NCBI GenBank assembly: GCA_944393585.1
Contig: CALYAR010000146.1
Span: forward strand, 1 to 45,799
Reading direction: 5' to 3'
DNA: 45,799 nucleotides
Origin: an uncultured Clostridia bacterium
GTDB taxonomy: Bacteria > Bacillota > Clostridia > CALYAR01
Part shown: in pieces, positions 19,759 through 45,799 of the stretch
Layout: each line of letters begins with the position of its first letter
Numbering within the stretch: the first letter of the stretch is position 1
The notes under the pieces: model-generated
The model's input: the letters and a program-made list of their open reading frames with translations, nothing else
Database searches by the model: none
Told to the model about the DNA's origin: nothing
Program-made: the position numbers and the translations under genes

Positions 19759-19761
19759 ACG

Positions 19762-20947: not shown

Positions 20948-20959
20948 GGAGGGGATACG

Positions 20960-25841: not shown

Positions 25842-25870
25842 TTGAGGGTTTTCTCGGACAATGCTATAAT
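25842..25870 (+). promoter_or_regulatory. Candidate sigmaA promoter of gltX
   Basis: TTGAGG (25842-25847), 17 nt, TGC-TATAAT (extended -10, 25865-25870). The leader is about 30 nt. Confidence 0.55.
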
Positions 25871-25904
25871 AAATAGCAAAAGTACTTTGGAAAGGAAGTT
25901 GTAT

Positions 25905-27560: not shown

Positions 27561-27654
27561 GGCAGGGAAAAGACCCCTTCACGGAATATGATACTTGCAA
27601 AACGAAAATAATAAATAATACCGGCCCCAATGGGCAAAGCAAGGCCCTTCGGCG

Positions 27655-27683
27655 TTGACATGCCAATCAGAATGGGGTATACT
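27655..27683 (+). promoter_or_regulatory. Candidate sigmaA promoter of metG
   Basis: TTGACA (27655-27660), 17 nt, TATACT (27678-27683). Confidence 0.55.
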
Positions 27684-27761
27684 AAAACACAAACACTTTG
27701 AAGTTACGATACATGAGAGGAGGTTGCGGTTTTCTTTCCAGCAGAAGAAAACCGGACAGTC

Positions 27762-29699
27762 ATGATGGGAGAAGAGAACGCAATGGCAAGACCTGAATTT
27801 CCAAAAAGGGCAGTCGTTACCGCTGGTATGCCCTACGGCAATAAAAAGCTGCATTTCGGCCATATCGGAGGCGTATTCATTCAGGCTGATATCTACGCAC
27901 GCTTTTTGAGGGACCGGATTGGGCAGGATAATGTACTTTTTGTTTCCGGAACGGATTGTTACGGCGCAACGATTGAGGCAAGCTATGAGCAGGCAAAGGC
28001 GGAAGGCTTTGCCGGAAGCCTGGCCGATTATGTGGAACAAAATCACAAGGATCAGAAAGAAACACTCTCCAAATATCAGGTTTCTCCCAATTTATTCGGC
28101 GCATCGGCGCTGGGAGAAGCGGGAAAAATCCATGCGGCTCTGTCCAAGGATATTTTTATGCGGCTGTATGAAAACAAGCAGTTAAAGCTCGAGCAGACGC
28201 TGCAATTCTTTGACGAGGAAAAAGGCGTATTTTTAAACGGCAGGCAGGTGACCGGCCGGTGCCCCATACAAGGGTGCAAGTCTGAAATCGCCTATGCGGA
28301 TGAATGCTCTCTCGGACATCAGTACAACCCTTCGGAATTAATCAATCCTGTCAGCGTATTGTCCGGCATGACCCCCACGTTTGTAGCGGTCAAGAACTGG
28401 TTCTTTGATCTGCCCGCGTACGAAGAAAAGCTAAAGCAGGAAGTAGAGCGCTGGGAACAGAACCCCGCCTGCCGGAAAAGCTTGACGACAGTCATCCGTG
28501 ACTTTTTGAAAAAGCCTTCCATTTATGTGAAAAAAGAGCTGATGGAAAAGGTGGAGACGCTTTCCGGTGTGCCGGAGTATTCCGTCGTTTCAGAAGAGCA
28601 GAAGGCTTCGGTAGAACTGGTATTTGCCGATTTGGACGCGCGGACAAAGGCCGTTTCCATTTTCGAGGAAAACGGAATCCGTTTCCGCACCGGAAAAACC
28701 CTGGTGCCGTTCCGCCTTTCGGGCAATGTCAAATGGGGCATCCCGGTTCCGGAAGTAGAAGGTATGTCAGACCTGACGTTTTGGGTGTGGCCCGAATCCC
28801 TGTGGGCTCCGATCTCCTTTACCAAAACCTGTCTGGGCGACGGCATTGAAGGCAGAAAGTGGGAAGACTGGTGGAAATCCGACGAAGCCCAGGTGTATCA
28901 GTTTATCGGCGAGGACAATATCTATTTTTACGCCATCGCCGAAATGGGCCTGTTTATGGCCCTGCAGGAGGGCTTCCGCCTGCCGCTGATTATCCCGAAC
29001 CACCATTTGCTCTATGGAAAGAAAAAAGCTTCAAGCAGCGGCGAAGTGAAGCCTCCCAAAGCGGCGGAGCTGCTGGATTACTACACGCCGGAACAGCTGC
29101 GGCTTCATTTCATGAACGCAAGTTTGGGCGAGAGGAGCGTCAGCTTTGAATCCAAGGCGCTCCTTGGCAAGGATGACGGATTTGACCCGGTTTTGTACGA
29201 GGGGAACCTGGTTACGAATGTATTCAACCGCCTGGTGCGCTCGTGCTTCTATACGGTTCAGAAATACAACGGCGGCGAATATCCTGCCGGTACGGTGAGC
29301 GAGACGGTCAAGAAAAAATCCGACGAAACCATTCTCGCCTATGAGCGGATGATGGCGGAGCTTTCGTTTGATCAGATCTTTGAACTGCTGAATATATACC
29401 TCAAAGATGCGAACAAGGATTGGTCCGTGCGCAGCAAGAGCGAAGACCCCAAGGAAATCAATCAGCTTTTATTGGATCTGTTCCACGTCATTCGCGTCGC
29501 GGCAGCTCTGTTTCATCCCATTACGCCGCGCGGCTGCGAAATGATACGCGACTATTTGCGTGTGGACGAGCGCATCTGGGACTGGCAGTATATTTTTGAG
29601 CCGTTGGATTCTTTCGTGGAAGCCGGCCATAAGTTCCGCTTTTTGGAACCGCGCGTGGACTTTTTCGAAAAGCATCCGTCCCAGCTTGCACAAAAATAG
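27762..29699 (+). CDS. metG: Methionine--tRNA ligase, divergent form
   Basis: 645-aa ORF. The likely start is ATG 27783 (MARPEF), 8 nt after GGGAGAAG. It has MPYGNKKLHFGH (HIGH), the zinc knuckle CPIQGCKSEIAYADECSLGH and WGIPVP. The KMSKS position reads KASSS (nt 29025-29039). Confidence 0.85.
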   Translation: MMGEENAMARPEFPKRAVVTAGMPYGNKKLHFGHIGGVFIQADIYARFLRDRIGQDNVLFVSGTDCYGATIEASYEQAKAEGFAGSLADYVEQNHKDQKETLSKYQVSPNLFGASALGEAGKIHAALSKDIFMRLYENKQLKLEQTLQFFDEEKGVFLNGRQVTGRCPIQGCKSEIAYADECSLGHQYNPSELINPVSVLSGMTPTFVAVKNWFFDLPAYEEKLKQEVERWEQNPACRKSLTTVIRDFLKKPSIYVKKELMEKVETLSGVPEYSVVSEEQKASVELVFADLDARTKAVSIFEENGIRFRTGKTLVPFRLSGNVKWGIPVPEVEGMSDLTFWVWPESLWAPISFTKTCLGDGIEGRKWEDWWKSDEAQVYQFIGEDNIYFYAIAEMGLFMALQEGFRLPLIIPNHHLLYGKKKASSSGEVKPPKAAELLDYYTPEQLRLHFMNASLGERSVSFESKALLGKDDGFDPVLYEGNLVTNVFNRLVRSCFYTVQKYNGGEYPAGTVSETVKKKSDETILAYERMMAELSFDQIFELLNIYLKDANKDWSVRSKSEDPKEINQLLLDLFHVIRVAAALFHPITPRGCEMIRDYLRVDERIWDWQYIFEPLDSFVEAGHKFRFLEPRVDFFEKHPSQLAQK

Positions 29700-31127: not shown

Positions 31128-31761
31128 ATGAAGAAGCAAAAGAGAAACAGTAATAACAGAGATTCCGTAAGAGGAAAAATAGATGGGCTGTCGTAGAGAG
31201 CGCAGGGATGGACAGTTTGTCGCCAGAGAGGCATCTGCTACGGAAAACAGATGCAGCAGCGTACTTCAACCGGCTGTACAAAATGGCGGATCCTTTGTGC
31301 TGTGAAGATAACGGCCGGCAGAACATAGATGCAGCACTGTTCAAAATGGTGCTGATCCGGCATCTTTACATACAGCGAACAGCGGAAAAAAGAAAGTGTA
31401 AACGATCCGGACAGCGGATGATTCGTATGGGGGAGTCCAAGAGGAAGTTTGCCTATGAAGCCCACACAGCCTGCGATAAGCATGGATTTATGATGGAAAC
31501 AGTGGTGGCTCCTGGCAATTCCGAAGACAGCGCAGCGTTTGGAAAAGTGTACAGCAAAGTAATAGAACGGATCCAAAAGACGGAGGCGATCGTTGCGGAC
31601 TCGGCCTATAAGTCTCCGCCCGTTTGCAGGAACATGTCCGAAGATTGCAGGTTTTGTCCACAGCTTACAGGCGCTCCCGGACCAGCAAGGGCAGACATGA
31701 ATGGCGGAAATATGTATATAACAAGTATTATGATTGCGTGCGCAGCCGGGTTTACCAATAA
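31128..31761 (+). mobile_element. Degraded IS1182-family transposase gene (relic)
   Basis: The fragments lie in different frames. First comes MKKQKRNSNNRDS... then a stop. Next is LSPERHLLRKTDAAAYFNRLY...EDNGRQNIDAALFKMVLIRHLY, a DUF772-type N-terminus. That jumps directly to KFAYEAHTACDKHGFMMETVVAPGNSEDSAAF...EAIVADSAYKSPPV, the DDE region. Another frame then reads HEWRKYVYNKYYDC. There is an internal deletion plus frameshifts. I identified no terminal inverted repeats. Confidence 0.6.
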
Positions 31762-31891
31762 AAATTACTTTCTAGTCTTCTGCTTTTCTTCTCCCAATTA
31801 AAGGATCCTTCGACAACTGTAAAACCAGTGATTTTAAAAAGAAAAATATAAATCGGAAAAGCCATTAACCTTGATTAGCGGTTTCATTTTG

Positions 31892-31936
31892 AAAAAAGCC
31901 GTCCGGTGAAAAGGATAACCCTTTCATCAGACGGCT
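31892..31936 (-). terminator. Rho-independent terminator ending the giant-protein/subtilase operon
   Basis: On the minus strand, the AGCCGTC...GACGGCT stem is followed by TTTTTT, about 40 nt after the S8 gene stop. Confidence 0.7.
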
Positions 31937-31977
31937 GCCGTACATACATGATTTCCTTTCGGGAAACATATTATATT

Positions 31978-33390
31978 TTATTTTTCTAAAAATCTTTGCA
32001 ATATCACTGCGGCCTCAGCGCGGGTAGTGCTGCCTAAAGGATCGAGTATACCACCGCCTTTTCCGGAAATCAACCCCGTTCCAACTGCCCAGTTAACATT
32101 TTCCCTTGCCCAGCCGGAAACTGCGTCTGCATCAGCAAATACGGTCAGATCACCTTGGCTGTCTGTGTTTATGCCCTTGTAGTCCGCATAACGGCTCATG
32201 ACAGCTGCCATTTCCTCACGGGTGATATTCTGTTCCGGCGCAAACTCTGTATTGGAAACCCCTGCAATGATTCCGTTCTCTGTTGCCCAGCCGACAGCTT
32301 CAGCGTAATACGCATTTTCAGCAACATCATTAAATTTCAATACATTGTTTATTTGCGGTTCGCCTTCTGCCCTGTAAAGTATGGCAACAAACATCCCGCG
32401 TGTCATACTTCCGTCCGGGTTGAATATTCCGTCGCCTGTTCCGCTCATCCAGCCTTGATGGTATGCTTTTCTCACACTTTCATAATACCAGTCGTCTTCT
32501 CTGACATCATAAAAGCAAACTATTTCACCATGATCGAAAAGCCTGAGATTTTCATAAAACCGGTCGGGATTAAAAATGCCATATCCGCTTTTTTCGTCAT
32601 ACCCGGCATCACATATATCTTCGCAGCTGACTCTCATAAGATATCTTACCTGAGACGGTGTAAGATACGGATATTGTTCAAGCGCTGCCGACGCGTGAGC
32701 AGTGATCAAAGCTGCTGAATACGAGGTACCGCTTATCAGTTCGTAATCAGCTGCGTTTTTTATCGAGACCGCCTTCAGATCTTCACCGTACATAAGCATA
32801 TCAAGTCCGTTCCCTTGGCAGGAAAACTCTGCCGGCTCCAATTCATTGTCATGGCTTCCCACTCCGATCACCGTGTCATACGCGACAGGATAATATACTT
32901 CATCGCCGCTGTTGCCGCAGGCCGACACGATCAATACGCCTTGTTTCTCAGCATAATCCACAGCTTTTTCCAGGCGCTCATCGCCGGCTGGCACTCCGCT
33001 GCTTATATTGATAATTTGGCAGCCGTATACATCTACAGCATCATATATCGCATTGCAGATTGCTTCAATCCCTCCGTTCAGTACCGCGCCTGAAGCGAGC
33101 TTTGTATAATATACAAGCGGCACGATCAGGCTTTCGCTGCACGGCGAAACGATTTCTCCGTCTGCCGTGCCTGTAATAAGGCTTGCCACTCTCGTTCCAT
33201 GTCCAACCTCATCATCGGTGCTGCTGTTCCCTAAAACATAATTTTTGCCGCTGAGTATTTTTTCACTGTCGATAATACTTTCCTTTTCTTTTACACCTGT
33301 ATCGATTACCCCGATTTTAACAGAGGCGGCATATGCCGCCTCTGTTAAGAAAATAAGTATTAACGGTATGATTATTATAATTTTTTTCAT
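31978..33390 (-). CDS. Secreted S8 (subtilisin-family) serine peptidase without a prodomain, with three C-terminal SLH repeats
   Basis: 470 aa. The signal peptide is MKKIIIIIPLILIFLTEAAYA. The catalytic Asp is only about 9 residues later (GVID30TGV), with H64 (DEVGHGTRV), N160 (ACGNSG) and S223 (ISGTSYSAA). The SLH repeats start at FYDVREDDWYYESV, FNDVAENAYYAEAV and FADADAVSGWAREN (nt 31981-32514). Confidence 0.9.
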   Translation of the reverse strand: MKKIIIIIPLILIFLTEAAYAASVKIGVIDTGVKEKESIIDSEKILSGKNYVLGNSSTDDEVGHGTRVASLITGTADGEIVSPCSESLIVPLVYYTKLASGAVLNGGIEAICNAIYDAVDVYGCQIINISSGVPAGDERLEKAVDYAEKQGVLIVSACGNSGDEVYYPVAYDTVIGVGSHDNELEPAEFSCQGNGLDMLMYGEDLKAVSIKNAADYELISGTSYSAALITAHASAALEQYPYLTPSQVRYLMRVSCEDICDAGYDEKSGYGIFNPDRFYENLRLFDHGEIVCFYDVREDDWYYESVRKAYHQGWMSGTGDGIFNPDGSMTRGMFVAILYRAEGEPQINNVLKFNDVAENAYYAEAVGWATENGIIAGVSNTEFAPEQNITREEMAAVMSRYADYKGINTDSQGDLTVFADADAVSGWARENVNWAVGTGLISGKGGGILDPLGSTTRAEAAVILQRFLEK

Positions 33391-33394
33391 ATCC

Positions 33395-36300
33395 TTACCT
33401 GTTTGTCAACAATGCGTATATCAATTTTGTAAATATTGTCGCGCCCTCCGCGCGTGTCGCAATCCCCTGCGGTCTGAAACTCCCATCCTCGTATCCGACT
33501 ACGATTCCAAGGTTTTTAACAGTCTCAACAGAGTCGTATGCCCAATCGCTTATCAAAGCATCATCTGTGAATTTATCGACGGTTTCAGCCGCGTTATTAT
33601 AACCTTCATACTTCATATAGCGGTCTATCATCGCACAAATCTGCTCACGAGTAATCTTATCGTCCGGTCCAAAATGCTCTGCATCATATCCTTCGACAAT
33701 ACCATTGTATGAAGCCCACGAGACATATTCCTCATACCATGAACCCGACTCAACATCTGTAAAGCTGTGCTTATCATAAGCGCCCAAATTGCCATGTATT
33801 CTGCCGAGTATCGTTACAAACATCGCTCTTGTAAGACCTCCGTCCGGTTCAAACAGATTATCTCCCACACCGGCTACGATCTCTCTTATTGATGCGAAAT
33901 CCACATACTCGTACGCCCAGTTTGATTCCGTCACATCACGAAATGCAGTTCCATCGTCAGTGACGATTCTGTACTTTGCAGAAACAGGAGCAATGAACTT
34001 AAATACGCCGTCTATAACAGCAGACTTTGCAACTGTTATGTATGTTTTTCCGCCGTCTGTGCTGTACTGTGCAACCACATTATTTTCATTTTCAACATGT
34101 AACTGCTTATATTCAACAAGTTCGCCTTCGTCTGCGTCCATCGTTGCTATCACGTCTGTCATTATGATCACTGGACGCCCGCTGTTGCTTGTCTTAAAGT
34201 GCGCGGTTGCATGCACGATGGAATCAGGCATGATAAATTTGATTGTAGCGCTTGAGGTATCTTCCACAGTCACGCCGTCAAGTTCCCAATGGGAAAATTG
34301 ATATCCGCTTTCGGCTTGTGCGGTTAATGTAACTGTATCGCCCGGCGCATATTCGCCTCCGCCCGTAACCGTTCCGCCGACGGTCGAACCTACAACCACA
34401 ACATTGCCGGATGTGTTTTCAAGTGCTCCGAATGTTACACTCGCTGTCATCGGCGCTACGCTTGTAACATTAAACTGTCCTACTATATAACCTTCGCTTT
34501 GCTTATCCAATGTTATTTTTCCGTTCTCGTCAACTGCGGCATTCCCTGTGACAGGATTTACGGACCAATTAACAATATCGTCGTTAATTGTAAATCTTCC
34601 TGTGGGAGTTTCAGCCACAAGGCTCAGCTGGCCTTCATTCGTATCGCCCAATGTGCTTATATTCTTGTTTGAATAAAGCACGCCGTTATAATAAACGTCA
34701 ACACGGTTCACCTTGCCCAGTCCGGCATGGTTTATCTTTGCCTCATGCTCCGAAGCATTTCCTGCCTCATCCATTGACGTTATTTTTATGTCATGGGTCG
34801 AAACGCTCTGATCGATCATTAAATCGAAACTGAAGCAGCCGTTCCCATCAATATCTGCATCGAATTCACTGAACGGCACGTGATCCGCTGTAACTGTTCC
34901 GTCTATCTCGACTGTGATATATGTGTCAGGATCCGTAATGCCGGTTACAGTAAGTTTTCCGTCTTCGCCGAACAGGGAACCGTTTATGGGCGAGCTTACA
35001 ATAAGCCGCGGTTCCGTTGTGTCAACCGTGAACTTATGGTTATGCGAGAACGAATCATTTGTTTCGTCACTTCCCCATATTTCAAGCACATAATCATTGT
35101 CCGGAAGATCCGTTAACGGAATTGTAATTGTGCCGGCATCTGTAAATTCGCCGTAATATCCTTCCCTGCCTTCTTCATATCCGTTGGCTATGCTCCAGAC
35201 GCCCGTAAGCTTTTCATTCGATGAGACTGTAAATGTGACATTTCCGTCTGCGAAGAGCGTCCCGTCCTTATCGGATGATACGGATATTTCCGCCTGTGTA
35301 GGGGCGTTCAGCGTAACAGCACTGCCTATTACCTCTTCTCCAATTACCCGGTACGAACCGGCGTCCTCGGTCGCTTCATAGTACGGGCTTACTCCGATCT
35401 GATATCTTTTGCCGGACTCCAGGCCCACTTCGGCGGTTTCTCCCTCAACTATATTGCCTTCTTCGTCATAAACGGGCACATCGAATCTTCCGCCTACGAT
35501 AAGCTTGTTATCCGTTATGCTTGACTTTGGAATTTCCACTCCCGCAAAGTCCGTTAAGCTTCCATCCTCGTTGTATACATTTACAATATATCCCGATATA
35601 TTGCCAGGAATATCGTTCAGAACTGCCGCCAGGCAATAATCCCCTGCGTTTTCATAGGATACTATATCGGCTGCCTGCGGCTGGTCGGGATTTACATAGG
35701 ATATTTTACTGTCTGCAGCAATAGAATTGCTTACGACATTCTCCTGCGAATATACAGCTCTCACATAATAATCACCGCTTTGCAGGCCTTTCGGTATATC
35801 AAACGATGCCGATCCCGAAGAAATATCCGAAGGATCCGTATATACACCTAAAAGCATATCGCTGTCAGTGCTGTTTTCGGTCACCGTCTGCTCTTTTGTC
35901 AAATAGAAGCTTATCTTATCAAGCTCATTCAAGTTTTCGCCGCTGTATAACACATTGACCTTACCATCATTGCCGCTTGACGCCGTAAGCGCACTTACTT
36001 CCGGTATAGGCGCAACGCTCAGGATTGTGATATCTGTCGCAACGGGCGTTGTGATATTATAGGTTCCGCTTGTACCTTTGCCTGATGTGACAGCCAGCGT
36101 TGCCGTTCCGTCATTGAATGTGAGGTTTGCATTGGCGTCCGCATCGGGATACATCTTGATATTCGGAAGGCCGCTCATCTGTGAATACAGTTCCTGTGCA
36201 TGCTCCAGGCTCTTTGCCGGATAAACAAGCGTCATAATTTCATCTGAATTTCCGCCGATTGTCACCCGGTGCTCCATTCTTGTGTCAAGCGATTGAACAG

Positions 36301-39300
36301 AAGATTCGCCTAAAAGGACAGGCGTTGCATTCAAATCTGAAACAATCTGAGCCTGCGCTCCGGGACTTATATTCGTACCAATCTTCATATAGACATTCTT
36401 GCCCGCTTTTTCGTCATATCCTAAAAGGACAGGCTCGAGTCCCTGCAGCGATGGGAGCAATTCCGGATACGTCGGTTCCGCGCTGCCGACGCCGATGCCG
36501 AAGTCAAAACTATCTTCGTCTCCCCAATAATAGGCAATGCCGAGCCCTACACCTATGACTTCCACACTGCCCCATACCTTGTCGGTACTAATTCCTACCG
36601 AAGCACCCGCAATGTCAATTCCGCCGATAAGCCCCACATAGTCTGGGATCCGCACCCTGACTTTCGCGAACGCTTCAAAGAATACATCGTCATTTTCTTT
36701 TTGATCAACAACGATATATCCTCCTCCCGTCAGGATTTGGAACAAATCTACATTGATGGCAACATGGAAATACCATGTCGGCAGCCACTGAAGCTTCAGC
36801 CCTGCATACGGGATAACGGGCGGCGCGTTCGGGACGGAGTCAAGCCTCAGGTTTGACATGGAGAGGCTTATGCCCTGCAGGCTGAACATTCCGTCCGCCT
36901 GGCATGACATTACCTGGATCACCTTGATATAAAGCCGGAGCATAAGCTGCAATGTCGGAAGCTTATCCCTTACCATAATGGTTTCATACAGATTATCAAA
37001 TCCGCCGCCTCCGCCTGTAATGACAACAGCCCCTGCCGGATCCAGGAAAAAGCCCAGTGCCCCTGCCGGGAGATTACAGTAAACAAATAATTTATTCGGA
37101 ACCGGTATTTCATTATCCACGCTCAGCACTTCAAGGGAAGCACCGAAATCCAGGTTTGCAAATTTCAATCCGCCTTCCACTGTGAAGCTGTAATTTCTTA
37201 TTGTGTTTACTTCAAGGCGCGCATTTATCTGCGGCATCGCCTCTGTATAAGACGGAAGCACGATATCCGCGCCGGCGCGGAATCCATAGAATCCGCACAA
37301 ATCTTCTTCGTCCTCACTTTGTGCCGGAATAGATGCAAACAGGACGTCCCGCACCAGAATATTCATTGTCGCCGCCTGCTGCGACTGTATATACCGGTCC
37401 TCATCCGTGAGGTCGTTGTTCTTCCCGAAAAGGACGTTTGCCCTATCGCGCAGATCCCGGGGATGATAGTAATCATTAAAATCGAACGCTGTTAAAATGC
37501 GGTCAAATACATCGTCATACTTCATGTTGTTCTTGTATTTCTGCCCGTTCGGGATCAAAAAACCTATGTCAAAGGACGCTGTAAACGAAACGGTTTTGCC
37601 GACAGCGCTGCCGTTATCGTCATTTATGACGCCGAGTATCCCAAACCCGAGCTGGAATACCGACCCCGCTATCTGCTGCGCGAGATCCAGCCCTGTATGG
37701 CCCCATACCAGAGAAATATAGTTTACATTCGTCTCGTTCTGTCTCTCTCCATGCAGGTTGTATTCCAAAAGGCCGTATTCCTGACCGTTTTCAATACTCG
37801 TCAGCGCGGCCGGGACAGACGCGATATGCGTCCGTTCGCCTGAAGTATATAGTTTCCCGTCAAAGTCAACGTTGATCTTTCTGTTTGCCGCGTTAATATC
37901 ATCATTTTCATAATAGATCTCGATAATCCCATCCTGAAAATCAAGACATTGGTTAATGGTGTATACGTTGTTTGAACCCGACTGCGATGTTCCCGTAAGA
38001 TGCACCATGTTTCCGTGACCATCTGTTACCGCTTCAAATTCCCCTCTTATCTCCAAAAGAATTTCGCTGTAATTTTGATCTGTCTGCTTGTATGTATCAA
38101 ATTCGGCCTCATCTTTAAAGCTTAAAATTGTGTACACCTGATTCGGCGCAGGCGACTTATCCTGCACAACGGCAACGACCCCGTATACGTTATTTTTGTA
38201 TTTCGGGTCCTCGGAAAAGATAAGACGGAGCGCTTCGGAAGTGTAGGAAGAAGGCGTGCCTGGGGCTATGATCTCACTATCATACGCCGACTGCCTCCAG
38301 TTGATATATACATGATATGTGCCGGGCACATATTCTTCCGGCAGAATCAGCGTCATCGTTCCGAGCTCTGCATCGATCACGATATCGTTCGGATCAACCG
38401 TATAGCTGTTCAGTCCGTCATCCGACTCAAGCACGATAGAATAATGCGTCTGGTCGGTAAGCATGGAAAAATTCGTACCGGTAATGATGTACCTGTTCCC
38501 GCCTTTATGATACAAAATTTCCGGATCTGCTCCTGTAAATGTTACCTGAGGCAGATTTCCATCTCCGCCGGGACACAATATATTAAAGCTTTTGCTGCCT
38601 ATCATATTTGCGTTTGAAAAGGTCATCGTCCCGTCAGAAATGTCATAAACCCTGAGTTCTACTCTTCTGTATGCCGCGGATTCGCCGACGGACGCCTTGA
38701 ATTGGAATGTATAATCAAGGACATCGCCGGCCTTAAACCCTTCATATGTCACATAATACGGATTCATGCTGTTTGGCTCAAAATCCAGCTCATTGCCATC
38801 CATATCAAGCGGCGTTATCCCGTTTGTCGTGTATGCAGCGATCGCAATTTTGGGCAGATCATTGGAGGAAAAGTTAGCCATATTGATATTGACCGGGAAT
38901 GACGCATTTCCCACAGCTCCGCTTGCCGGGACATAGCTTTGCCTGTCCGCTGAAAGTTCAAGCGAATTCGGTGTAATGACGTTCAGCGCTACACTCTCTG
39001 AAGCGTCGACGTTGTAGTTAGAATAAACGCCATAGTAACAGCTTACGCTGCCGCTTTCATTTAATCCTATTTCGCCCAAATCATTGTATATCGCATAAGC
39101 GCTGTCTGCCGTCTGATATTCAATATTATTTGCGTTTGTAAATGTCATCGCCGGATCCGGAGTGTATTCAAACACCGTCGACGCAAGATTGTTCCAATGG
39201 GCAAAAACTGCTTTATACGCGGTTGTATTGATCGAATATGCCGCGATGCCTGAAAGTCCGTCATTATCAGACGCATAAATACTCTCCGGAATAAAGCCGG

Positions 39301-39913
39301 AAGAATACTCACTGCCTAAAATCTCCTTTTCACTGCCATATGTTACAGCGTAACCAAGATTGTCGTTTGCGTTATAATACGCATAATCCTGATTTCCGAG
39401 CGACGTATCGAACAAAATTCTTGATTTTATTTTCGCTGGGCTTCCCGATTTCACTTCAGCTTTATAGGAAATTGTTACCATGCCGTGCTGATTGCTCGCC
39501 GTATTCGGTATTTCTATTGTCTGCGTAAATTCAATGCCGTCAACGCTCCACACTGCTTCTATGCTGTCTGCAAGCTGCGTTACTGTCACATCCGAGCTGT
39601 CGAGTCCCAAAAATCCGTAGCTTCCGCCGAATATATATTCCTTCTTTTCCCCGTCACGTTCTACCTCAAACGAAGTAAAAGACGTATCATATTCTCCGTT
39701 GTGATATAATAAATCCTTATTATTGTCTGATTTTTTGAGTTTATCGCCTTCGGCGGTTTTGATTGCAAAACCGCCGTTTTCTGCAGATACATAGACTTCA
39801 ATATTTTCATTTGTTAAGCTGTATTCTCTTTCTCCTTCCGCATATGCAGTTAGAGGAATTATCATGCCCATAATCAGACTAAAGCACAATATAAGCGATA
39901 TACATTTCTTCAT
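33395..39913 (-). CDS. Giant (2172-aa) secreted surface protein with three C-terminal SLH repeats; function unknown
   Basis: The signal peptide is MKKCISLILCFSLIMGMIIPLTAYA, after a GAGAGGAG RBS. The first ~280 aa are unassigned. An IPT/TIG-like module (PQVTFTGADPEILYHKGGNRYIITGTNF) follows, then a Gly-rich central module of about 470 aa. Next come Ig-like modules (ITSMDEAGNASEH) and a divergent InlB-B-repeat-like module (GGTVTGGGEYAPGDTVTLTAQAESGYQFSHWELDG). The SLH repeats occupy nt 33398-33943. Confidence 0.85.
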   Translation of the reverse strand: MKKCISLILCFSLIMGMIIPLTAYAEGEREYSLTNENIEVYVSAENGGFAIKTAEGDKLKKSDNNKDLLYHNGEYDTSFTSFEVERDGEKKEYIFGGSYGFLGLDSSDVTVTQLADSIEAVWSVDGIEFTQTIEIPNTASNQHGMVTISYKAEVKSGSPAKIKSRILFDTSLGNQDYAYYNANDNLGYAVTYGSEKEILGSEYSSGFIPESIYASDNDGLSGIAAYSINTTAYKAVFAHWNNLASTVFEYTPDPAMTFTNANNIEYQTADSAYAIYNDLGEIGLNESGSVSCYYGVYSNYNVDASESVALNVITPNSLELSADRQSYVPASGAVGNASFPVNINMANFSSNDLPKIAIAAYTTNGITPLDMDGNELDFEPNSMNPYYVTYEGFKAGDVLDYTFQFKASVGESAAYRRVELRVYDISDGTMTFSNANMIGSKSFNILCPGGDGNLPQVTFTGADPEILYHKGGNRYIITGTNFSMLTDQTHYSIVLESDDGLNSYTVDPNDIVIDAELGTMTLILPEEYVPGTYHVYINWRQSAYDSEIIAPGTPSSYTSEALRLIFSEDPKYKNNVYGVVAVVQDKSPAPNQVYTILSFKDEAEFDTYKQTDQNYSEILLEIRGEFEAVTDGHGNMVHLTGTSQSGSNNVYTINQCLDFQDGIIEIYYENDDINAANRKINVDFDGKLYTSGERTHIASVPAALTSIENGQEYGLLEYNLHGERQNETNVNYISLVWGHTGLDLAQQIAGSVFQLGFGILGVINDDNGSAVGKTVSFTASFDIGFLIPNGQKYKNNMKYDDVFDRILTAFDFNDYYHPRDLRDRANVLFGKNNDLTDEDRYIQSQQAATMNILVRDVLFASIPAQSEDEEDLCGFYGFRAGADIVLPSYTEAMPQINARLEVNTIRNYSFTVEGGLKFANLDFGASLEVLSVDNEIPVPNKLFVYCNLPAGALGFFLDPAGAVVITGGGGGFDNLYETIMVRDKLPTLQLMLRLYIKVIQVMSCQADGMFSLQGISLSMSNLRLDSVPNAPPVIPYAGLKLQWLPTWYFHVAINVDLFQILTGGGYIVVDQKENDDVFFEAFAKVRVRIPDYVGLIGGIDIAGASVGISTDKVWGSVEVIGVGLGIAYYWGDEDSFDFGIGVGSAEPTYPELLPSLQGLEPVLLGYDEKAGKNVYMKIGTNISPGAQAQIVSDLNATPVLLGESSVQSLDTRMEHRVTIGGNSDEIMTLVYPAKSLEHAQELYSQMSGLPNIKMYPDADANANLTFNDGTATLAVTSGKGTSGTYNITTPVATDITILSVAPIPEVSALTASSGNDGKVNVLYSGENLNELDKISFYLTKEQTVTENSTDSDMLLGVYTDPSDISSGSASFDIPKGLQSGDYYVRAVYSQENVVSNSIAADSKISYVNPDQPQAADIVSYENAGDYCLAAVLNDIPGNISGYIVNVYNEDGSLTDFAGVEIPKSSITDNKLIVGGRFDVPVYDEEGNIVEGETAEVGLESGKRYQIGVSPYYEATEDAGSYRVIGEEVIGSAVTLNAPTQAEISVSSDKDGTLFADGNVTFTVSSNEKLTGVWSIANGYEEGREGYYGEFTDAGTITIPLTDLPDNDYVLEIWGSDETNDSFSHNHKFTVDTTEPRLIVSSPINGSLFGEDGKLTVTGITDPDTYITVEIDGTVTADHVPFSEFDADIDGNGCFSFDLMIDQSVSTHDIKITSMDEAGNASEHEAKINHAGLGKVNRVDVYYNGVLYSNKNISTLGDTNEGQLSLVAETPTGRFTINDDIVNWSVNPVTGNAAVDENGKITLDKQSEGYIVGQFNVTSVAPMTASVTFGALENTSGNVVVVGSTVGGTVTGGGEYAPGDTVTLTAQAESGYQFSHWELDGVTVEDTSSATIKFIMPDSIVHATAHFKTSNSGRPVIIMTDVIATMDADEGELVEYKQLHVENENNVVAQYSTDGGKTYITVAKSAVIDGVFKFIAPVSAKYRIVTDDGTAFRDVTESNWAYEYVDFASIREIVAGVGDNLFEPDGGLTRAMFVTILGRIHGNLGAYDKHSFTDVESGSWYEEYVSWASYNGIVEGYDAEHFGPDDKITREQICAMIDRYMKYEGYNNAAETVDKFTDDALISDWAYDSVETVKNLGIVVGYEDGSFRPQGIATRAEGATIFTKLIYALLTNR

Positions 39914-39944
39914 ATTTACTACTCCTCTCTGTATGAGCCGTTTT

Positions 39945-42900
39945 TTATTCCTGAATCAGCAGATGCGCTAAGAATACTTCTTTATTCTGGCGCACTACAT
40001 AAATCGTGTACCATCCCTCCTGCTCAAAGTTGTACCTATACTCGTCATTTACGCCGTTCTTTATACCGGCAGCTGTCATAGGCTGCATCCACGGCTTCAT
40101 CTGACCTGCCGTATAGAATCCCTTTGCGCAATAGACCTGATACGGTTCAAAAGCCGTTCCTAGAACAGAGTCGTCTGGCAGGCTTACGCTGATTGTATGT
40201 TCGCCCTTTGATGTTGTCACAACGCCTGTGTGTTTCGTAAAGATATCATCTACTTCCACCGTTGTAGCATTCTTTGAGTAAACACTCAGATAACGTATGA
40301 TATCGGCTGTGTTTCCGGCTTCGTCAGCCGCTGTTACCGTATATGCGTAATTGCCTATGGTATTTAGATCTGCCGGCAAGCCCGATCTGTCAACGGTAAG
40401 CGTGATATTTTCGGCACTGGATTTATCATCGCTTACAAACAAGCCGCTTGTGAGCATACCGTCATCAACGCTTGCAATATCGCTGCCCTGGCGTACATAT
40501 ACATAGTCCGAATCTGCCATAATTACAGGCGGCATGGAATCGCCGACCGCTATAGACACGAAGCAGTTCTCTCTGTTTCCGGCCTCGTCTGTCACTGTTA
40601 TTGTATAGAATCCGGCGCTTTGCGCTGTTAATGCAAGAATCGAACCGTCCGGCTCTGTTACTTTAAGGCTGTCGCTTGTTGTAAGGCCATCGTCCAAACT
40701 TACCGTTGCAGGCTTATTTACTGAAAGCTTGAACTCCGCTCCCGAAGGCGTGATCTGCTCCGGTATATCATACGCATAAACCTCCAGTTTTTTTGCATCG
40801 ATCTCATTGACATCGAAATTCACTTCGACAACATTTCCGACATTATCCGTAAACGAATACTCGTAAATACTATTTTCATATACGGTTTCTTCAAACGGAT
40901 CTTCCTTTGTATATGCGCCTCTGCCGTAGAATATGGTCTTATTATCGGCATATGCCCGGATTGTCGCACTGATTGGCTTGCTCGCTCCATCGCGCTTATT
41001 GTATATCACTTCCGTTGTGATATCCGGCACACTCTTATCTATGATGCCGTCTGGAACATTTATTTCAAGCGGCGTTCCGCTCTGACCGTTGAGCGCTTTA
41101 TACTGTACTCTTACGGAGGCCCCCTTTGTAAAAGTAACGATAGCCGAGCTTTCTGTATTTTTCGATATACTTACTCCGTCTTCCTCTGCTGCAGCCGTGT
41201 ATGCGCCGTCTTTCAGGATCTCAAGGTTCAGATCCCTGATATTTTTATTGAACGTAATGAACGCTTCAATGTCCCTGTTTGCAAATTCCGGCAATACAAC
41301 CTGCGAAGTATCGGATGACGGTGAATATGCGACAAGCCTTGCCACCGGCTTTGTATCGTCAATTTCCGCTATCGAGACCACTTTTGTCGTGACATTGCCG
41401 CACTTATCACTTACTGTAAATACAACGTTTCCGTTCTGAGCTGCAGTGTACAGGAACGTATCATTACCTCCTCTTGTGACGCCGCTGGGGCCCAGGACGG
41501 TCAATTCGTCAAAGCGGCTCACATCATCGGTTACGGTTAACTCAATCTCAACGCTGTAACCCTTTACTGTTTTCTTTACATTGCTGATGACCGGCGGCGT
41601 AAAGTCTATGATAAAGCCGCCGTCAAAGTCAAACCTTTTGCTTTGAAGATTATTTTCATCAACCATGACAAGCGAGAATTCAGCATCCTCTGAGTTAATG
41701 TAAATTATATCTCCGACAACTTCCACACCTTCAACATCCGCATTCTGCGCTGTTTCGTATGTAATGCCGGCTGTATCTTCTCCATAAGGCAGCAGCACTG
41801 TCTTTACGTTGTTGGGAGAAAGCGTTGAAGTTGTAATGCTGTACTTTGCCGCGCCGCCGTACTCATTAATCAGATCCTTGTACCTTTCGCTTTCTTCCTC
41901 GCCGATACTGCCTATTATTACAGAGGTGTTGTTCCTCTGCGCATAAATGGATACTTCCATATCCGGCAGCGTCTGGTATACCTGTTCGGATTTTCGTATC
42001 TCAACACCAAGTTCTGCGGTGCATTCCTGCATAAATCCGTAATCATCTGTAACCGTAAAGGTTTTTGTTGTTCCTACAGGATCATTGTAGGTGAATTTGA
42101 AACTGCTTTCTCCAAGCAATGACCTTTCCGGGTCAACAGTATTTACAACGAATGTCGCGTAATCATACGTATATTTCTGTCCGTTTTCATCTTCAAACAG
42201 CCCATTGGGGAAGCTCCACTGCGTTTCAAGCTCCGCAATTTCTTTGTTGATATAGACGTTTACCAAATATTCGGTAAGCAGACCCTCGTTGTTTTGAACA
42301 AGAACCTTGAACGTCCCGTTTTTCGTCACTTTGAGCGTTACGTCCGTATAAAATTCGCCGAAAGCTCCGGCGCTGCCGTCGCTCTGCCATACAGTCGCTT
42401 CACCGGCTTTCATAGACGAATCTATCACATAACCGCCCATCGCCTCCATGTTATAATCGTCATCATTTGGCAGCTCCACCTTAAAGCTGTTGCCGTCAAG
42501 CGACTTGATGCTTACATTCACAATATCTTTATCGCCGTCCTTGGCGTTTACTGCATATACGTCAAGCCTGTCGCCGTCAAATGCTTCGGGCGGCACGGTA
42601 TAAGTGACCTCATGCTCATCTCCGAAATGGTCTTTTACCGTAAGCGTGTATTCGCCGTCCTTATAAACAGGCATCGCTTCAGAGAACTCCCGGAACGTAT
42701 TCTCTGTATCGATCTCGCCTCTGATGCCTCTGTCCGTGAGCTTTGGCTCGGTCACTTCGGCCGGATTCTCCAAAGAAACGGAATAATATGGGGAAACGAT
42801 ATTCCCTTCCGGTCCGAACGGATGATTATCTCTGTCATACTGGAATTCATTCTCCGTAAATTGGATTTCCGGGATGTTCATCGCGCCAGTAGTGACGATA

Positions 42901-45799
42901 TCCGATTGATGTCCGACACGGTCGACAACATACAGGGAAATCGTTCCTGTGTATCCTCCGCTTCCCGCGGGGGCTGTAAACGTCATTCCGGCATAGATCT
43001 GCCCATCCAAAGGCCGAAGGGATCCGGTGTATTCCAATATGCCCATAGCAGTATTTTCCGGGCGCACACCGAACTCTGACTGTGAAAACTCTTCGATCTT
43101 AAAGAACCCATCATCATCGGTCAAAAGCCCATATCCTTCCAGAACCGCCCTGTACTCCGGATCATCATACCTGAGATACAGCTCCATATCCGACAGGTCC
43201 TCCTCAAATACGTCATCCATTACGGATATGCCCAGATCCGATCCGCCATGGCTTTCAATGGTGATAACCGGGTTTTCGGCATCGATCCTCTCGGCTTTGA
43301 CAGCGGTGTATCCGATAGCGCCGGCGCTGTTTACCGTATAGAACACTCTGTATTGTTCATCGCGTACGACCGCGTCGTCGCCCTCCGGAAAATCGGCGAT
43401 ATTCCCGTCAGGTGCGATCATTTTGACGGCGAGCTCCTCGCCCGCTCCGCCGCTTAATTCGGTGATGACCAACCGGCGTTCTGTCGCATAGCCGTCGTCC
43501 GCGCTCGGCGTAAATCCTACGGAAAGCTTCGGCGCCTCCTGTCTGGTGTCAAAAATAAGCGTATGGATATCGCTGAGTCCGCTGTACGGATTGACCGTCT
43601 GATAATATACGGTATTTATCGCATCGGCGACAAGATGCCTCTCGAAGTTAGCCACATACGTCAACCATTCCGCGCCGTCTTTTGTTTCTCCGTTGTCCTC
43701 GTTCCAAATACGGATCCTTTGCTCATAATCAAGACCGGCAAAATCAAGCGTGATAGTCGTCCTGTCCGTCAATGCAATGTCGATCGCTTTCGCCACCCCC
43801 AGATCCTGCGCTGTCTCCTGTGCGGAATCGAATTTCTGCTCATGCAAGACAGATACCTGTTCCGTTCCGCCATTATTATCCGGTACCTCTATATATGTGT
43901 TCTTAGTAAGTTTCTGTAAATACGCCTCGTCTTGCTGTGCGTTATTATAGCAGGCAAATATCTCGTCGCTTGTTGTGTAGAGTCCGTAACTGTATACACT
44001 GTCCCATTTCACAAACGTCTGAATATAGAATTCCAGATTTGTCCTGTCCTCCGTAAAGAAATCTTCATTCAGGCTTTCGGGAAGAACGATGTATTGTTCT
44101 TCTTCCGTCAACGACAGCGGAATCTCGAAGATAGGGTTATCGTTATTCGCTATATTGTCTGTGGCATACCCCAGCTTTAATACGACTCTCTCATAATCGG
44201 TCCACGCAAGGCCGTTTATTTCCGGAAGAGAAAGCCTTACTCGGATCGATTTTCCGTCAAGGCTCGTATTATATGTCGTCAAGCCATCCTCGCCGTATTC
44301 GGGCATTTGCCAGACGCCGCCGGTCGGGTCCAGCTCCCAGTCTACAGGCTCGAAATCGAACCCCGGCGCCAGAAGTACGCCTTGCACGGCATCAGAAAGT
44401 CCTCCCATACGGATGGTGTCCTCCGTTATGGAAATCGGTACGGGAACCGGAAGCGGACCGTTGGTTGTAAAATCCTCAATCGTCAAACCATTCCCGGAAA
44501 TCAATACATACGAAACGTCTCCGAAATACTCTCCGGTTGTTGTCAGATCCCGAATGAAATCGACGCTGCCCTCTGCCGGCGTAAGCAGGATTTGCTTTTG
44601 TGGATCAGTATTCTCGCTTCTTATATAATATGACCACTGCACATTCTCATCGGTAAGCATATTTTGCTGATCATCGGGGATATAATATTGGTCTACGATT
44701 GCTACTGCATAGCCATTCTCATTCGAATACGTATCCTTTATCATTAGGATCGTTTTCGCATTCGATGTGAAGTCCTCGATAACCCTATTAAAAATAATAT
44801 TCGGTGCGTATCCGTTTTCATTCTCGGTTGTTGCACGTTCTACTATATGGAAACTCGTGAGATTATACATAAACGGAAACGTGACCTGGCTTTCATTGCC
44901 GAAATTGTCTTCGACCGTATATGTAATAGTATAGTCCACTATCTCTCCCGCGTCCACGGCTTTCATCACAAATGTGATCGTGTTCGTCTTTCCGTCTTCC
45001 CCCGGAGTATAGATGATATCGACATTCTCATGAGAGCCCGGTCCCACATCGGTGAATGAGCCGTCGCTCGCCGATGCCTTGAATGTGTCAAAATTGATTC
45101 CGTTCTCATCCTCAAGCGTTATGCTGCATGAAAGATCATATGTGTTTGGCGTGTTTGCATTTGGCGCGATCGTCACACGGCTTGCATTGCCAAAGGTCGG
45201 ATTTGTCATATCAAGGGTATACGCCACCTGTTCCGATACAACAGTTCGGTTCCCGGCGACATCCTCCGCCATCACGTGTATGGTGGGACCTGTAATCTCA
45301 ATATCGCCTATTTTTATATAGATGTAAGTGTCGCCGCCGCTGTATAAATCAAAATAGTACGCACTGGCATCCGGCAGGTCTGTTCGGAACTGCTCGGTTG
45401 CGGGTATCCATTTATCTTCCAACTCGGCTTCAGTCATAACGGTATTGGATATGTAATACGAAAAGTATTGTTTTTCATAATATGCTTGCTCACCGCCGGA
45501 CACATAATAGTAGCTGCTGGGAAAACCGGTTAGATAGAAATATCCGCGCATCGTATCGATGCCGCTGGCGGCCACATTGCCGTTGCCGTCATCATCCGCT
45601 ATATTCAGCGGCACGCAGAAAATAGCGTCGTCATCAAAATTTGGTATCGGTTCAATCCGATCGATCGCGGGTCCCAATGTATCCAGCGCAAAATCTTGGT
45701 TGGCAAATATCCCTTCCTCTTTCAGATTGTGCACTCCGCACGGGTTTTTTGCGGAATCCAAAACATTGGAGCCGTCAATAGAAACAGGCGTTATCTTTC
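39945..45799 (-). CDS. Giant (over 1950 aa) Ig-like-repeat protein, N-terminus outside the window; function unknown
   Basis: The ORF track begins at a TTG (45761), but the frame is open to the window edge (upstream codons read ...KITPVSIDGSNV). It has many beta-sandwich modules ending in the D-x-x-G-N motif: AEDVAGN, VEDNFGN, VSDKCGN, FTDNVGN, VTDEAGN and AADEAGN. I saw no SLH, LPXTG or TM segment at the C-terminus. The stop lies 31 nt before the next gene. Confidence 0.8.
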   Translation of the reverse strand, partial: KITPVSIDGSNVLDSAKNPCGVHNLKEEGIFANQDFALDTLGPAIDRIEPIPNFDDDAIFCVPLNIADDDGNGNVAASGIDTMRGYFYLTGFPSSYYYVSGGEQAYYEKQYFSYYISNTVMTEAELEDKWIPATEQFRTDLPDASAYYFDLYSGGDTYIYIKIGDIEITGPTIHVMAEDVAGNRTVVSEQVAYTLDMTNPTFGNASRVTIAPNANTPNTYDLSCSITLEDENGINFDTFKASASDGSFTDVGPGSHENVDIIYTPGEDGKTNTITFVMKAVDAGEIVDYTITYTVEDNFGNESQVTFPFMYNLTSFHIVERATTENENGYAPNIIFNRVIEDFTSNAKTILMIKDTYSNENGYAVAIVDQYYIPDDQQNMLTDENVQWSYYIRSENTDPQKQILLTPAEGSVDFIRDLTTTGEYFGDVSYVLISGNGLTIEDFTTNGPLPVPVPISITEDTIRMGGLSDAVQGVLLAPGFDFEPVDWELDPTGGVWQMPEYGEDGLTTYNTSLDGKSIRVRLSLPEINGLAWTDYERVVLKLGYATDNIANNDNPIFEIPLSLTEEEQYIVLPESLNEDFFTEDRTNLEFYIQTFVKWDSVYSYGLYTTSDEIFACYNNAQQDEAYLQKLTKNTYIEVPDNNGGTEQVSVLHEQKFDSAQETAQDLGVAKAIDIALTDRTTITLDFAGLDYEQRIRIWNEDNGETKDGAEWLTYVANFERHLVADAINTVYYQTVNPYSGLSDIHTLIFDTRQEAPKLSVGFTPSADDGYATERRLVITELSGGAGEELAVKMIAPDGNIADFPEGDDAVVRDEQYRVFYTVNSAGAIGYTAVKAERIDAENPVITIESHGGSDLGISVMDDVFEEDLSDMELYLRYDDPEYRAVLEGYGLLTDDDGFFKIEEFSQSEFGVRPENTAMGILEYTGSLRPLDGQIYAGMTFTAPAGSGGYTGTISLYVVDRVGHQSDIVTTGAMNIPEIQFTENEFQYDRDNHPFGPEGNIVSPYYSVSLENPAEVTEPKLTDRGIRGEIDTENTFREFSEAMPVYKDGEYTLTVKDHFGDEHEVTYTVPPEAFDGDRLDVYAVNAKDGDKDIVNVSIKSLDGNSFKVELPNDDDYNMEAMGGYVIDSSMKAGEATVWQSDGSAGAFGEFYTDVTLKVTKNGTFKVLVQNNEGLLTEYLVNVYINKEIAELETQWSFPNGLFEDENGQKYTYDYATFVVNTVDPERSLLGESSFKFTYNDPVGTTKTFTVTDDYGFMQECTAELGVEIRKSEQVYQTLPDMEVSIYAQRNNTSVIIGSIGEEESERYKDLINEYGGAAKYSITTSTLSPNNVKTVLLPYGEDTAGITYETAQNADVEGVEVVGDIIYINSEDAEFSLVMVDENNLQSKRFDFDGGFIIDFTPPVISNVKKTVKGYSVEIELTVTDDVSRFDELTVLGPSGVTRGGNDTFLYTAAQNGNVVFTVSDKCGNVTTKVVSIAEIDDTKPVARLVAYSPSSDTSQVVLPEFANRDIEAFITFNKNIRDLNLEILKDGAYTAAAEEDGVSISKNTESSAIVTFTKGASVRVQYKALNGQSGTPLEINVPDGIIDKSVPDITTEVIYNKRDGASKPISATIRAYADNKTIFYGRGAYTKEDPFEETVYENSIYEYSFTDNVGNVVEVNFDVNEIDAKKLEVYAYDIPEQITPSGAEFKLSVNKPATVSLDDGLTTSDSLKVTEPDGSILALTAQSAGFYTITVTDEAGNRENCFVSIAVGDSMPPVIMADSDYVYVRQGSDIASVDDGMLTSGLFVSDDKSSAENITLTVDRSGLPADLNTIGNYAYTVTAADEAGNTADIIRYLSVYSKNATTVEVDDIFTKHTGVVTTSKGEHTISVSLPDDSVLGTAFEPYQVYCAKGFYTAGQMKPWMQPMTAAGIKNGVNDEYRYNFEQEGWYTIYVVRQNKEVFLAHLLIQE

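Follow-up and report, generated by a model that had tools for sequence, protein, structure and literature searches.

S-layer homology (SLH) domains, subtilases of family S8, arrays of immunoglobulin (Ig)-like domains and giant surface proteins with a protease of their own are all known already. In Bordetella, FhaB/FHA, a protein of more than 2000 amino acids (aa), is cut by its own envelope-anchored S8-family protease, SphB1 (PMC6070651, PMC4542190), and this processing governs maturation or release, not degradation. In Clostridioides difficile, Cwp84 and its substrate SlpA share the same type of wall module, their genes lie near one another, and the product is a two-protein surface complex with one part anchored (PMC5270738). 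For the SLH proteins of Bacillota, among them Sap, EA1 and the scaffoldins, binding of the SLH domains to wall polymer is established (PMC6081394). Here we describe a locus that resembles each of these systems in part. It lies on the minus strand of contig CALYAR010000146.1 (assembly GCA_944393585.1) of an uncultured Clostridia bacterium, positions 1 to 45,799 of which were analysed and are called the window below, and it encodes two giant proteins, A and B, followed by a secreted subtilase, which we call S8. The pairing of A with B, the core of B and the clade of propeptide-less proteases to which S8 belongs are new. We propose, with about equal expectation of being right or wrong, that the locus forms the 3' portion of a Sec-dependent module for surface display that is conserved in Clostridia, in which B would be a scaffold displaying A and the protease would process or release them.

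FhaB/SphB1 appears to be the closest working analogy, the relation lying only in the S8 fold. FhaB is a Gram-negative protein secreted by the two-partner route through FhaC, it is a beta-helix and not an Ig array, and it has no second giant partner; SphB1 is an autotransporter lipoprotein whose gene does not adjoin fhaB in an operon. The comparison with SlpA/Cwp84 made in an earlier reading of this DNA (the first-pass annotation) was acceptable as logic but fell on every point of membership, and we rejected the locus as a case of that type of maturation: Cwp84 belongs to the papain class of cysteine proteases and is anchored by CWB2 repeats, whereas the protease here is of family S8 and the anchors are SLH repeats, and a single SlpA precursor is cut, whereas A and B are separate genes (PMC5270738). 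The SlpA subunits are also about ten times smaller and form an S-layer. With the SLH proteins the likeness is direct, in that B and S8 each end in a canonical triplet of tandem SLH repeats with a third repeat of the TRAE type; unlike those proteins, however, the ~1800-aa core of B and all of A fall in no described family, cohesins are absent, and the anchor is not fixed. SLH domains are received by a pyruvylated secondary cell-wall polymer (CsaB), and the window, the one part of this genome that was covered, contains no csaB gene. Neither Pfam, NCBIfam and the PDB families nor the literature covered A, the B core or the operon, and literature searches on SLH proteins, subtilases and giant proteins in Clostridia turned up no account of it. 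The earlier remark that the locus matches no system that could be named thus stood, as regards characterised systems, after the Pfam, NCBIfam, PDB, Foldseek and literature searches.

The genes and the elements between and after them are as follows.

39945-45799, minus strand: gene A, truncated at its 5' end, with 1950 codons read from 45797 and the frame open to the window edge.
39914-39944, minus strand: the A-B spacer, 31 bp, with the ribosome-binding site (RBS) GAGAGGAG 8 nt 5' of the ATG.
33395-39913, minus strand: gene B, 2172 aa, of which ~1830 aa form a conserved core.
33391-33394, minus strand: the 4 bp between B and S8; the RBS of S8, AGGTAAGGA, overlaps the B stop codon.
31978-33390, minus strand: gene S8, a secreted subtilase of 470 aa.
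31891-31936, minus strand: an intrinsic terminator, with a hairpin at 31897-31936 followed by U6, at the predicted end of the operon.

The three open reading frames (ORFs) are tightly packed, with gaps of 31 and 4 bp and one strong terminator, and checks of the ORFs, RBSs and folding confirmed this arrangement as first annotated. The terminator hairpin had a predicted energy of −27.1 kcal/mol, with a z-score of −5.6; among 200 shuffled sequences, not one folded equally well. A consensus (pattern) scan of the operon strand inside the genes detected no terminator of comparable strength. In relatives, the spacing between A and B was 12-61 bp.

The conservation of the locus was examined through B. 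A search with B residues 1-1250 as the query returned a large family of 2000-2200-aa proteins, 31-41% identical, all unnamed or 'hypothetical' and with variable C-terminal domains. For the locus survey, one genome per species was scanned, which gave 233 stretches encoding a B relative, and 80 of these loci were fetched. The hosts belonged to Oscillospiraceae, Lachnospiraceae, Clostridiaceae, Sedimentibacter, Anaerovorax and Ruminiclostridium, with the gut anaerobes Flavonifractor, Intestinimonas butyriciproducens, Eubacterium segne and Oscillibacter among those in culture; the nearest relatives of the window locus came from metagenome-assembled genomes (MAGs) of uncultured Clostridia and from 'Candidatus Allobutyricicoccus pentlandensis'. 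An A orthologue ended directly before B in 78 of the 79 analysable loci. Even in distant loci the giants upstream of B were true A orthologues, being collinear with A and 21-27% identical to it (E 1e-30). The S8 gene was counted in the 60 loci in which B is complete and is followed by 1.2 kb or more of sequence: 40 of them had an S8 orthologue directly after B and on its strand, with a catalytic domain 33-85% identical, a small sortase-like gene took its place in four, and neither gene was present in 16. Four more loci, which were truncated, showed the start of an S8 gene. A first small sampling of contexts had suggested that the protease was sporadic, and the 80-locus survey overturned that impression; the protease is not found randomly beside unrelated genes, an outcome that had been set beforehand as a test of the proposed linkage. 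The claim of a co-conserved, syntenic set of three genes therefore stood among distant Clostridia, although a third of the loci are without the protease. We concluded, from comparison of these loci, that the A-B pair is the invariable core and the protease a frequent, dispensable accessory. When the flanking ORFs of the surveyed loci were clustered, no secretion ATPase, glycosyltransferase or chaperone recurred, and only the protease and regulators did so. Across the family, A proteins, aligned with MAFFT for a subset of the orthologues, are 10-30% identical and B proteins 25-60%, a contrast in rate that fits an exposed, variable partner (A) on a conserved scaffold (B).

Two departures from the usual arrangement at the 3' end were seen. 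In one MAG (L051:9911-17614), one ORF of 2567 aa spans B, its SLH repeats and the S8 domain, and the S8 portion is not preceded by a signal peptide; this may be a Rosetta-stone fusion or may reflect a stop codon lost in assembly and, coming from a single assembly, is suggestive. In five loci in which B ends in LRR_5 repeats and a lysine-rich tail (L004:16543-17127, L045, L059, L061 and L067), a membrane-anchored protein of 194 aa occupies the S8 position. It matched the model for SrtD, a class D sortase, weakly (E 8e-6) and showed no evident TLxTC motif, and we do not regard it as a proven sortase.

Gene B was divided as follows, the domain limits being approximate.

39839-39913, minus strand: predicted signal peptide, aa 1-25, ending ...PLTAYA/EGE (the slash marks the cleavage site), read from the sequence.
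38924-39838, minus strand: N-terminal beta-supersandwich, aa ~26-330, modelled with a galactose-mutarotase-like fold.
37646-38923, minus strand: run of beta-sandwiches (Ig/TIG-like), aa ~331-756, modelled by AlphaFold2 at a predicted local distance difference test (pLDDT) score of 66-87, with a weak TIG match at aa 461-513.
36404-37645, minus strand: module 2, aa ~757-1170, modelled as a helical insert followed by ~18 long antiparallel strands in a barrel- or belt-like beta-meander.
36980-37033, minus strand: invariant glycine-rich loop GGGGGFDNLYET inside module 2, aa ~961-978.
34409-36403, minus strand: distal core, aa ~1171-1835, 22-39% identical across the family.
34190-34399, minus strand: Flg_new_2, a divergent InlB B-repeat, aa 1839-1908 (Pfam E 7.1e-20).
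33959-34141, minus strand: pre-SLH beta module, aa ~1925-1985 (..PYY..DG.K..VP.S.V.DG.L.FIAP...Y.F).
33422-33952, minus strand: three SLH repeats with the motifs TRAMF, TREQI and TRAEG (Pfam SLH E 1.7e-32, 3 stretches).

By database searches, whether with single sequences or with profiles, A and B matched in Pfam, NCBIfam and the PDB only SLH, Flg_new_2 and weak Ig-like domains, and B was therefore modelled. A first AlphaFold2 model, covering B residues 26-1200 and built with 37 homologues, had a mean pLDDT of 70.8; most of the N-terminal 700 residues lay between 70 and 90, and most of the supersandwich region between 75 and 91. With Foldseek, the first ~300 residues matched the N-domains of GH94 phosphorylases, GH38 mannosidase, OpgD, polysaccharide lyase and YidC P1 (E 1e-7 to 1e-4) with probability 1.0 at 8-12% identity, the TM score being ~0.15 when normalised to the whole 1175-aa model. 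The same region gave no sequence-level match in the Pfam, NCBIfam and PDB searches. This tip is also the most conserved part of B: residues 51-150 are 51-62% identical, and ~44 residues, mostly polar or aromatic, are invariant (HWNNLA, TADSAYA[LM]Y and DTxLGxQDY). A profile of the tip run against 1.84 billion representative proteins found 236 clusters (50% identity) at E <= 1e-30, and in all full-length members of the best 150 matches listed it stood at the N-terminus of a protein of 2000-3600 aa.

A second model, of B aa 676-1195 with 80 homologues, had a pLDDT of 71.7 and a predicted TM score (pTM) of 0.59. The glycine-rich loop of module 2, GGGGG[FI]DNLY, contains the invariant columns G279, D283, G286, G292, G294 and G296 in an alignment (A2) of 80 sequences that are ~30-38% identical. 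Foldseek gave only weak matches to module 2 (TM score <= 0.26, root-mean-square deviation (rmsd) 10-34 Å), namely the outer-membrane barrels BtuB, LptD, PapC/FimD and Tom40 and the ApoB100 belt, and a Foldseek search of the viral structure library BFVD matched nothing. The hosts are Clostridia by taxonomy and hence presumably have a monoderm envelope. We did not call module 2 a barrel; as modelled, it appears to be a fold new in this analysis, for which Foldseek gave no structural homologue. Weak Foldseek matches to C3, C5 and A2ML1 raised the idea of an alpha-2-macroglobulin, which we rejected, as neither A nor B contains the thioester motif CxEQ and the matches had TM scores of 0.07-0.12 and an rmsd of 23-40 Å. 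Beyond module 2, the distal core is presumed from its sequence to be beta-rich and to consist of Ig-like domains, homologues carrying Big_13, Big_6 and Big_2. The description of A and B as giant beta-sandwich proteins thus applied to B only in part, as B has sandwiches but also a supersandwich and a large beta-meander; and of its two modules once called unassignable, one now has a predicted fold (galactose-mutarotase-like) and module 2 is still structurally unassigned.

Conservation of B runs from residue 1 to ~1830 and then collapses where the anchors differ. Across the family, these are SLH repeats, a transmembrane helix with a basic tail, a dockerin (as at the end of the homologues P0031 and P0089), or LRR_5 repeats with a lysine-rich tail. 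The SLH triplets annotated in B and S8 were confirmed by Pfam, and that of B matched the SLH structures of Bacillus anthracis Sap (6bt4 and 3pyw, E 1e-11). The pre-SLH module is kept in B members of the SLH type, including some from protease-less loci, and so is no marker of the presence of the protease. No LPXTG-type motif near the C-terminus and no hydrophobic C-terminal run was found in the A, B and S8 proteins of the window; the window contains no sortase gene, and just a few distant loci carry a degenerate gene that resembles one. With neither a sorting signal in the three proteins nor a sortase in the window, we rejected a sortase-dependent surface protein or pilus. Pfam likewise detected no cohesin and no dockerin in the window proteins, and a cellulosome component was rejected on this ground.

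Gene A has the following segment at its 3' end.

39948-40022, minus strand: extreme C-terminal segment of A (...EQEGWYTIYVVRQNKEVFLAHLLIQE), a family-wide terminal motif.

The N-terminus of A was read from a relative. The full-length protein P0121 (2408 aa, 87% identical to A) has a Sec signal peptide (…VYA/AGG), and because the window copy aligns to it from residue ~463, about 460 N-terminal aa of A lie outside the window; the TTG 'start' at 45761 is an edge effect, being simply the start codon nearest to where the window cuts the frame. Every complete A orthologue with a plausible start codon has a signal peptide. None of the 58 complete orthologues has an anchor, and the window copy has no LPXTG motif or hydrophobic tail, in agreement with the earlier description of A as lacking a wall or membrane anchor. 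That A is a chain of Ig-like domains was less clear at the outset, since the Pfam matches of the window copy were below threshold; a profile of the last 800 residues of 26 orthologues, however, matched Ig-like modules in the PDB (7js4, 2kpn, the SraP adhesin and titin), with Bact_surface_Ig-like found in 22 of the 26 members and Big_13, Big_3 and HYR in others. On the orthologue profile, and only on it, the prediction that A consists largely of Ig-like (Big/DUF5011-type) domains is solid. A domain-end motif, D-x-x-G-N, occurs about 11 times in the window copy. Nearly all of the 58 complete orthologues end, 1-3 residues from the stop, in the motif G[FY]YT[LIV]Y..TQ[SND]R..[YF]....Y[VI][EQ]x-stop. 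In the alignment of the last 800 aa, four of the 13 invariant columns fall within the last 58 residues, and the terminal columns T781 and Q787 are invariant. By this conservation the C-terminal segment of A is a candidate docking element. BLAST found no homology between A and B, and they are therefore not paralogues.

The third protein has the following parts.

33328-33390, minus strand: predicted signal peptide of S8, aa 1-21, ending ...EAAYA/ASV.
32566-33327, minus strand: catalytic domain, aa 22 to ~275, with no propeptide.
31987-32517, minus strand: three SLH repeats, aa ~292-468 (Pfam E 8.3e-33).

The two visible signal peptides, of B and of S8, do both end in AYA as had been noted, reading LTAYA/EGE and EAAYA/ASV. 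S8 matched Peptidase_S8 (PF00082) at 114.3 bits against a cut-off of 21.8 (E 8.8e-33) and matched subtilisins DY and Carlsberg at E 3e-26 to 3e-21. Residues D30, H64, N160 and S223 are invariant in 45 of 45 operon-linked S8 orthologues, and by its Asp-His-Ser order and oxyanion Asn, read from sequence, S8 is a subtilase (MEROPS/Pfam S8). The catalytic Asp lies nine residues past the predicted signal cleavage site (8-40 in most orthologues), and residue ~21 of mature subtilisin aligns to residue ~19 of S8. Because the Asp sits so near the cleavage site, an I9 prodomain would not fit between them, Pfam found no Inhibitor_I9 match in the window protein, and without an I9 propeptide S8 was rejected as a classical secreted subtilisin of the BPN'/Carlsberg type. 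The top NCBIfam models for S8 are all specific processing proteases, namely mycosin, QhpE and PatA/G, and all score far below their cut-offs. The best, for mycosins (TIGR03921), gave 139.6 bits (E 1.3e-40) with the catalytic domain. Mycosins also lack a cleaved I9 prodomain, and some S8 orthologues have a C-terminal transmembrane anchor, as mycosins do. The mycosin score is, however, half of the cut-off of 278.75, the S8 of the window is anchored by SLH repeats, and neither the window nor the related loci contain Ecc/Ess genes of a type VII secretion system (T7SS); we therefore rejected a T7SS/mycosin assignment.

The anchor of the protease also varied. About 17 orthologues, ~40% of cases, had SLH repeats, about 20 had no anchor (~300 aa) and two had a C-terminal transmembrane helix; by these counts, SLH co-anchoring of S8 is a lineage trait and not the defining logic. 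A search with the catalytic domain showed a compact clade at 35% identity or more, followed by a sharp fall to 30%. Six members of this clade were examined in their own contigs: one lay in a canonical A-B-S8 locus, four lay behind another family of giants and one was alone, so that in five of the six the protease gene came directly after one for a surface protein, or a split pair of them, with at least 2400 aa. The subtilase first called 'dedicated' is accordingly linked to giant surface proteins but occurs behind unrelated giants as well. As judged from these contexts, the S8 clade is a companion of giant surface proteins in general, not of A and B alone. The second giant family was seen before S8 at L090:1-11251, L091:1486-10843, L092:2631-11359 and L093:2083-10861, with a cohesin-containing protein preceding the giant in L093. 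Its members are 2100-3400 aa long, contain Flg_new repeats and carry SLH or a dockerin at the N-terminus. The C-terminus reads ...D[IM]LGN in three of the four, and BLAST detected no similarity to A or B.

The analysis shows the Sec export signals, the anchors of B and S8, the conserved gene order, the intact catalytic residues of S8 and the predicted fold of the B tip; the A-B complex, its interface, adhesion and the substrate of the protease are inferred, and the parts would work together as follows. B would be the cell-bound scaffold, fixed at its C-terminus, here through the three SLH repeats binding secondary cell-wall polymer, and its ~1800-aa core would project outward with the carbohydrate-binding-type supersandwich at the distal, N-terminal end. 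A, a fast-evolving Ig array, would stay at the cell surface through a non-covalent contact with B, in which the most plausible elements are the conserved C-terminal segment of A and the highly conserved N-terminal region of B. That only B of the pair is anchored, and that its anchors are swapped between lineages, fits a B that holds or displays A. The resulting two-protein assembly, of ~4500 residues, would act as an adhesin or fibre. S8 would be exported beside A and B and, here, tethered to the same wall polymer, where limited proteolysis of A and/or B would either mature or release them; expression of the whole would be controlled by a LuxR/GerE-type regulator encoded upstream, outside the window.

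Several observations weigh against this proposal. The protease is absent from 20 of the 60 loci and thus is not essential to the A-B pair. When B from protease-positive and protease-negative loci was compared, no cleavage or recognition motif was found, and neither A nor B has a feature that tracks the protease; the differences in B were C-terminal modules that follow the SLH lineage, some of them present in protease-less loci too. We infer co-transcription of A, B and S8 from their spacing only, and promoter-like matches are present inside A and B. The beta-meander of module 2 is not accounted for by display of A. Finally, the invariant polar residues of the supersandwich and the dockerin-bearing B homologues fit a glycan-binding or enzymatic role equally well.

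This last point leads to the alternative that the locus serves the harvesting or binding of a substrate, in which a polysaccharide or glycoprotein would be bound or processed by the supersandwich of B, and maybe by the meander, with A supplying more binding surface and S8 digesting substrate protein as a nutrient and not processing A or B. We consider this unlikely, for all that the B tip has the fold of a carbohydrate-binding or accessory domain found in GH94, GH38, OpgD and polysaccharide lyase, its ~44 invariant residues resemble a ligand site, the dockerins of some B homologues suggest cellulosome attachment, and glycoside-hydrolase genes lie near (GH130 in the window, GH43 and GH39 in the locus L001). 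These neighbouring genes are not kept between loci, however, and no catalytic glycoside hydrolase, polysaccharide lyase or carbohydrate esterase domain was detected in A or B; nor does the protease look like a bulk degrader, being small, without propeptide and strictly gene-linked, with processing enzymes as its NCBIfam matches (all below cut-off). Somewhat less credible still is that A and B are independent proteins that are merely co-expressed, A being released into the medium, perhaps to become part of a matrix or biofilm, and not bound to B. An anchorless A and the lack of detectable A-B homology speak for it; against it stand the near-universal order of the two genes, kept across families in which A is only 21-27% identical, their tight spacing, and the invariant C-terminal motif of A and hyper-conserved N-terminus of B, which are hard to explain without a conserved partner. 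That A and B form a true two-component S-layer lattice matured by a wall protease, as SlpA is by Cwp84, is very improbable, since the classical SLH triplet of B and the adjacent gene for a wall-tethered protease (as cwp84 is to slpA; PMC5270738) are offset by a size 10-20 times that of typical S-layer subunits, by the many members anchored through a transmembrane helix, dockerin or LRR tail and not SLH, by a dedicated transcriptional regulator that suggests conditional expression, and by a downstream flank that varies among close relatives, unlike that of a fixed housekeeping locus.

Display of A on B, the reading we prefer, can be carried further by comparison with the type V pili of Bacteroidia (PMC9046445, PMC5954841). 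These are sortase-independent filaments with protease-licensed assembly, in which a terminal strand of one subunit docks into the next, an arrangement that the C-terminus of A, the N-terminus of B and the linked protease would match. The type V pilins differ in being lipoproteins of 30-60 kDa that form homopolymers on the outer membrane, the protease is a cysteine gingipain, and strand exchange at the locus described here would be by analogy. Extended in this way, the locus would make a new Gram-positive surface filament without sortase or dedicated secretion machine: the invariant C-terminal strand of A would dock in the supersandwich tip of B, S8 would license this end-to-end joining or sever it later, and the S8 clade would be a general giant-adhesin maturase of Clostridia, acting on two or more unrelated families whose proteins exceed 2000 aa. 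We regard this extended form as speculative and unlikely.

The module comprises ~5000 codons, has no name, and includes ~4000 residues without Pfam coverage, and relatives of B are encoded in at least 233 species-level genomes. Single clusters at 90% identity comprise over 4000 sequences from metagenomes, with some of their contigs taken from metagenome assemblies. If the proposed logic of A, B and protease is true, it would define the way in which the largest surface structures of many commensal Clostridia are built and would bear on adhesion to mucus, fibre or other cells and, because A evolves fast, on antigenic variation; propeptide-less subtilases would at the same time be given a definite function, that of accompanying giant surface proteins.

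The region upstream of the window was read from relatives. In the closest long contig (L001, with a B 92% identical), the gene order is a regulator, a 118-aa ORF, A (2408 aa), B (2182 aa) and an SLH-bearing S8 (470 aa). The regulator, of 399 aa and LuxR/GerE type, lies upstream of A. Among the surveyed loci, 21 have a regulator with an XRE-type helix-turn-helix (HTH) and a LuxR/GerE HTH upstream of A, and response regulators recurred in 16. By this comparison the operon of relatives starts with a LuxR/GerE-type regulator, whose counterpart would lie outside the window. The 118-aa ORF between regulator and A (L001:2372-2728, also in L009, L010 and L039) is Cys-rich (…CGSCRF…CGCEKK). It is found in close relatives of the window locus and had weak matches in three distant loci; it matched no family.

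At the other end, nucleotide similarity to the close relatives L001, L009, L010, L011 and L039 runs out where the operon ends (31892-31975), either at its terminator or shortly ahead of it, and the downstream flank therefore differs among related genomes. A fragment of a DDE_Tnp_1 transposase lies directly past the operon terminator (31208-31801, plus strand). A strong terminator-like hairpin also occurs within the 5' end of gene B on the opposite strand (39751-39776, plus strand), with an 11-bp stem, seven GC pairs and a T-run. Outside the three-gene operon the window is ordinary chromosome, with the following features.

4612-4957, plus strand: transfer-messenger RNA (tmRNA) gene, Rfam 150 bits, with the ARAGORN tag peptide ANNNRVAVAA.
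16845-21757, plus strand: Rnf-type electron-transport operon, with RnfC at 16845-18191 and an RnfB-like gene at 20960-21757.
22872-23912, minus strand: GH130 mannoside phosphorylase with an AraC regulator, an ordinary chromosomal context.
25749-29699, plus strand: range holding the GluRS/GlnRS-type and MetRS genes, likewise an ordinary chromosomal context.

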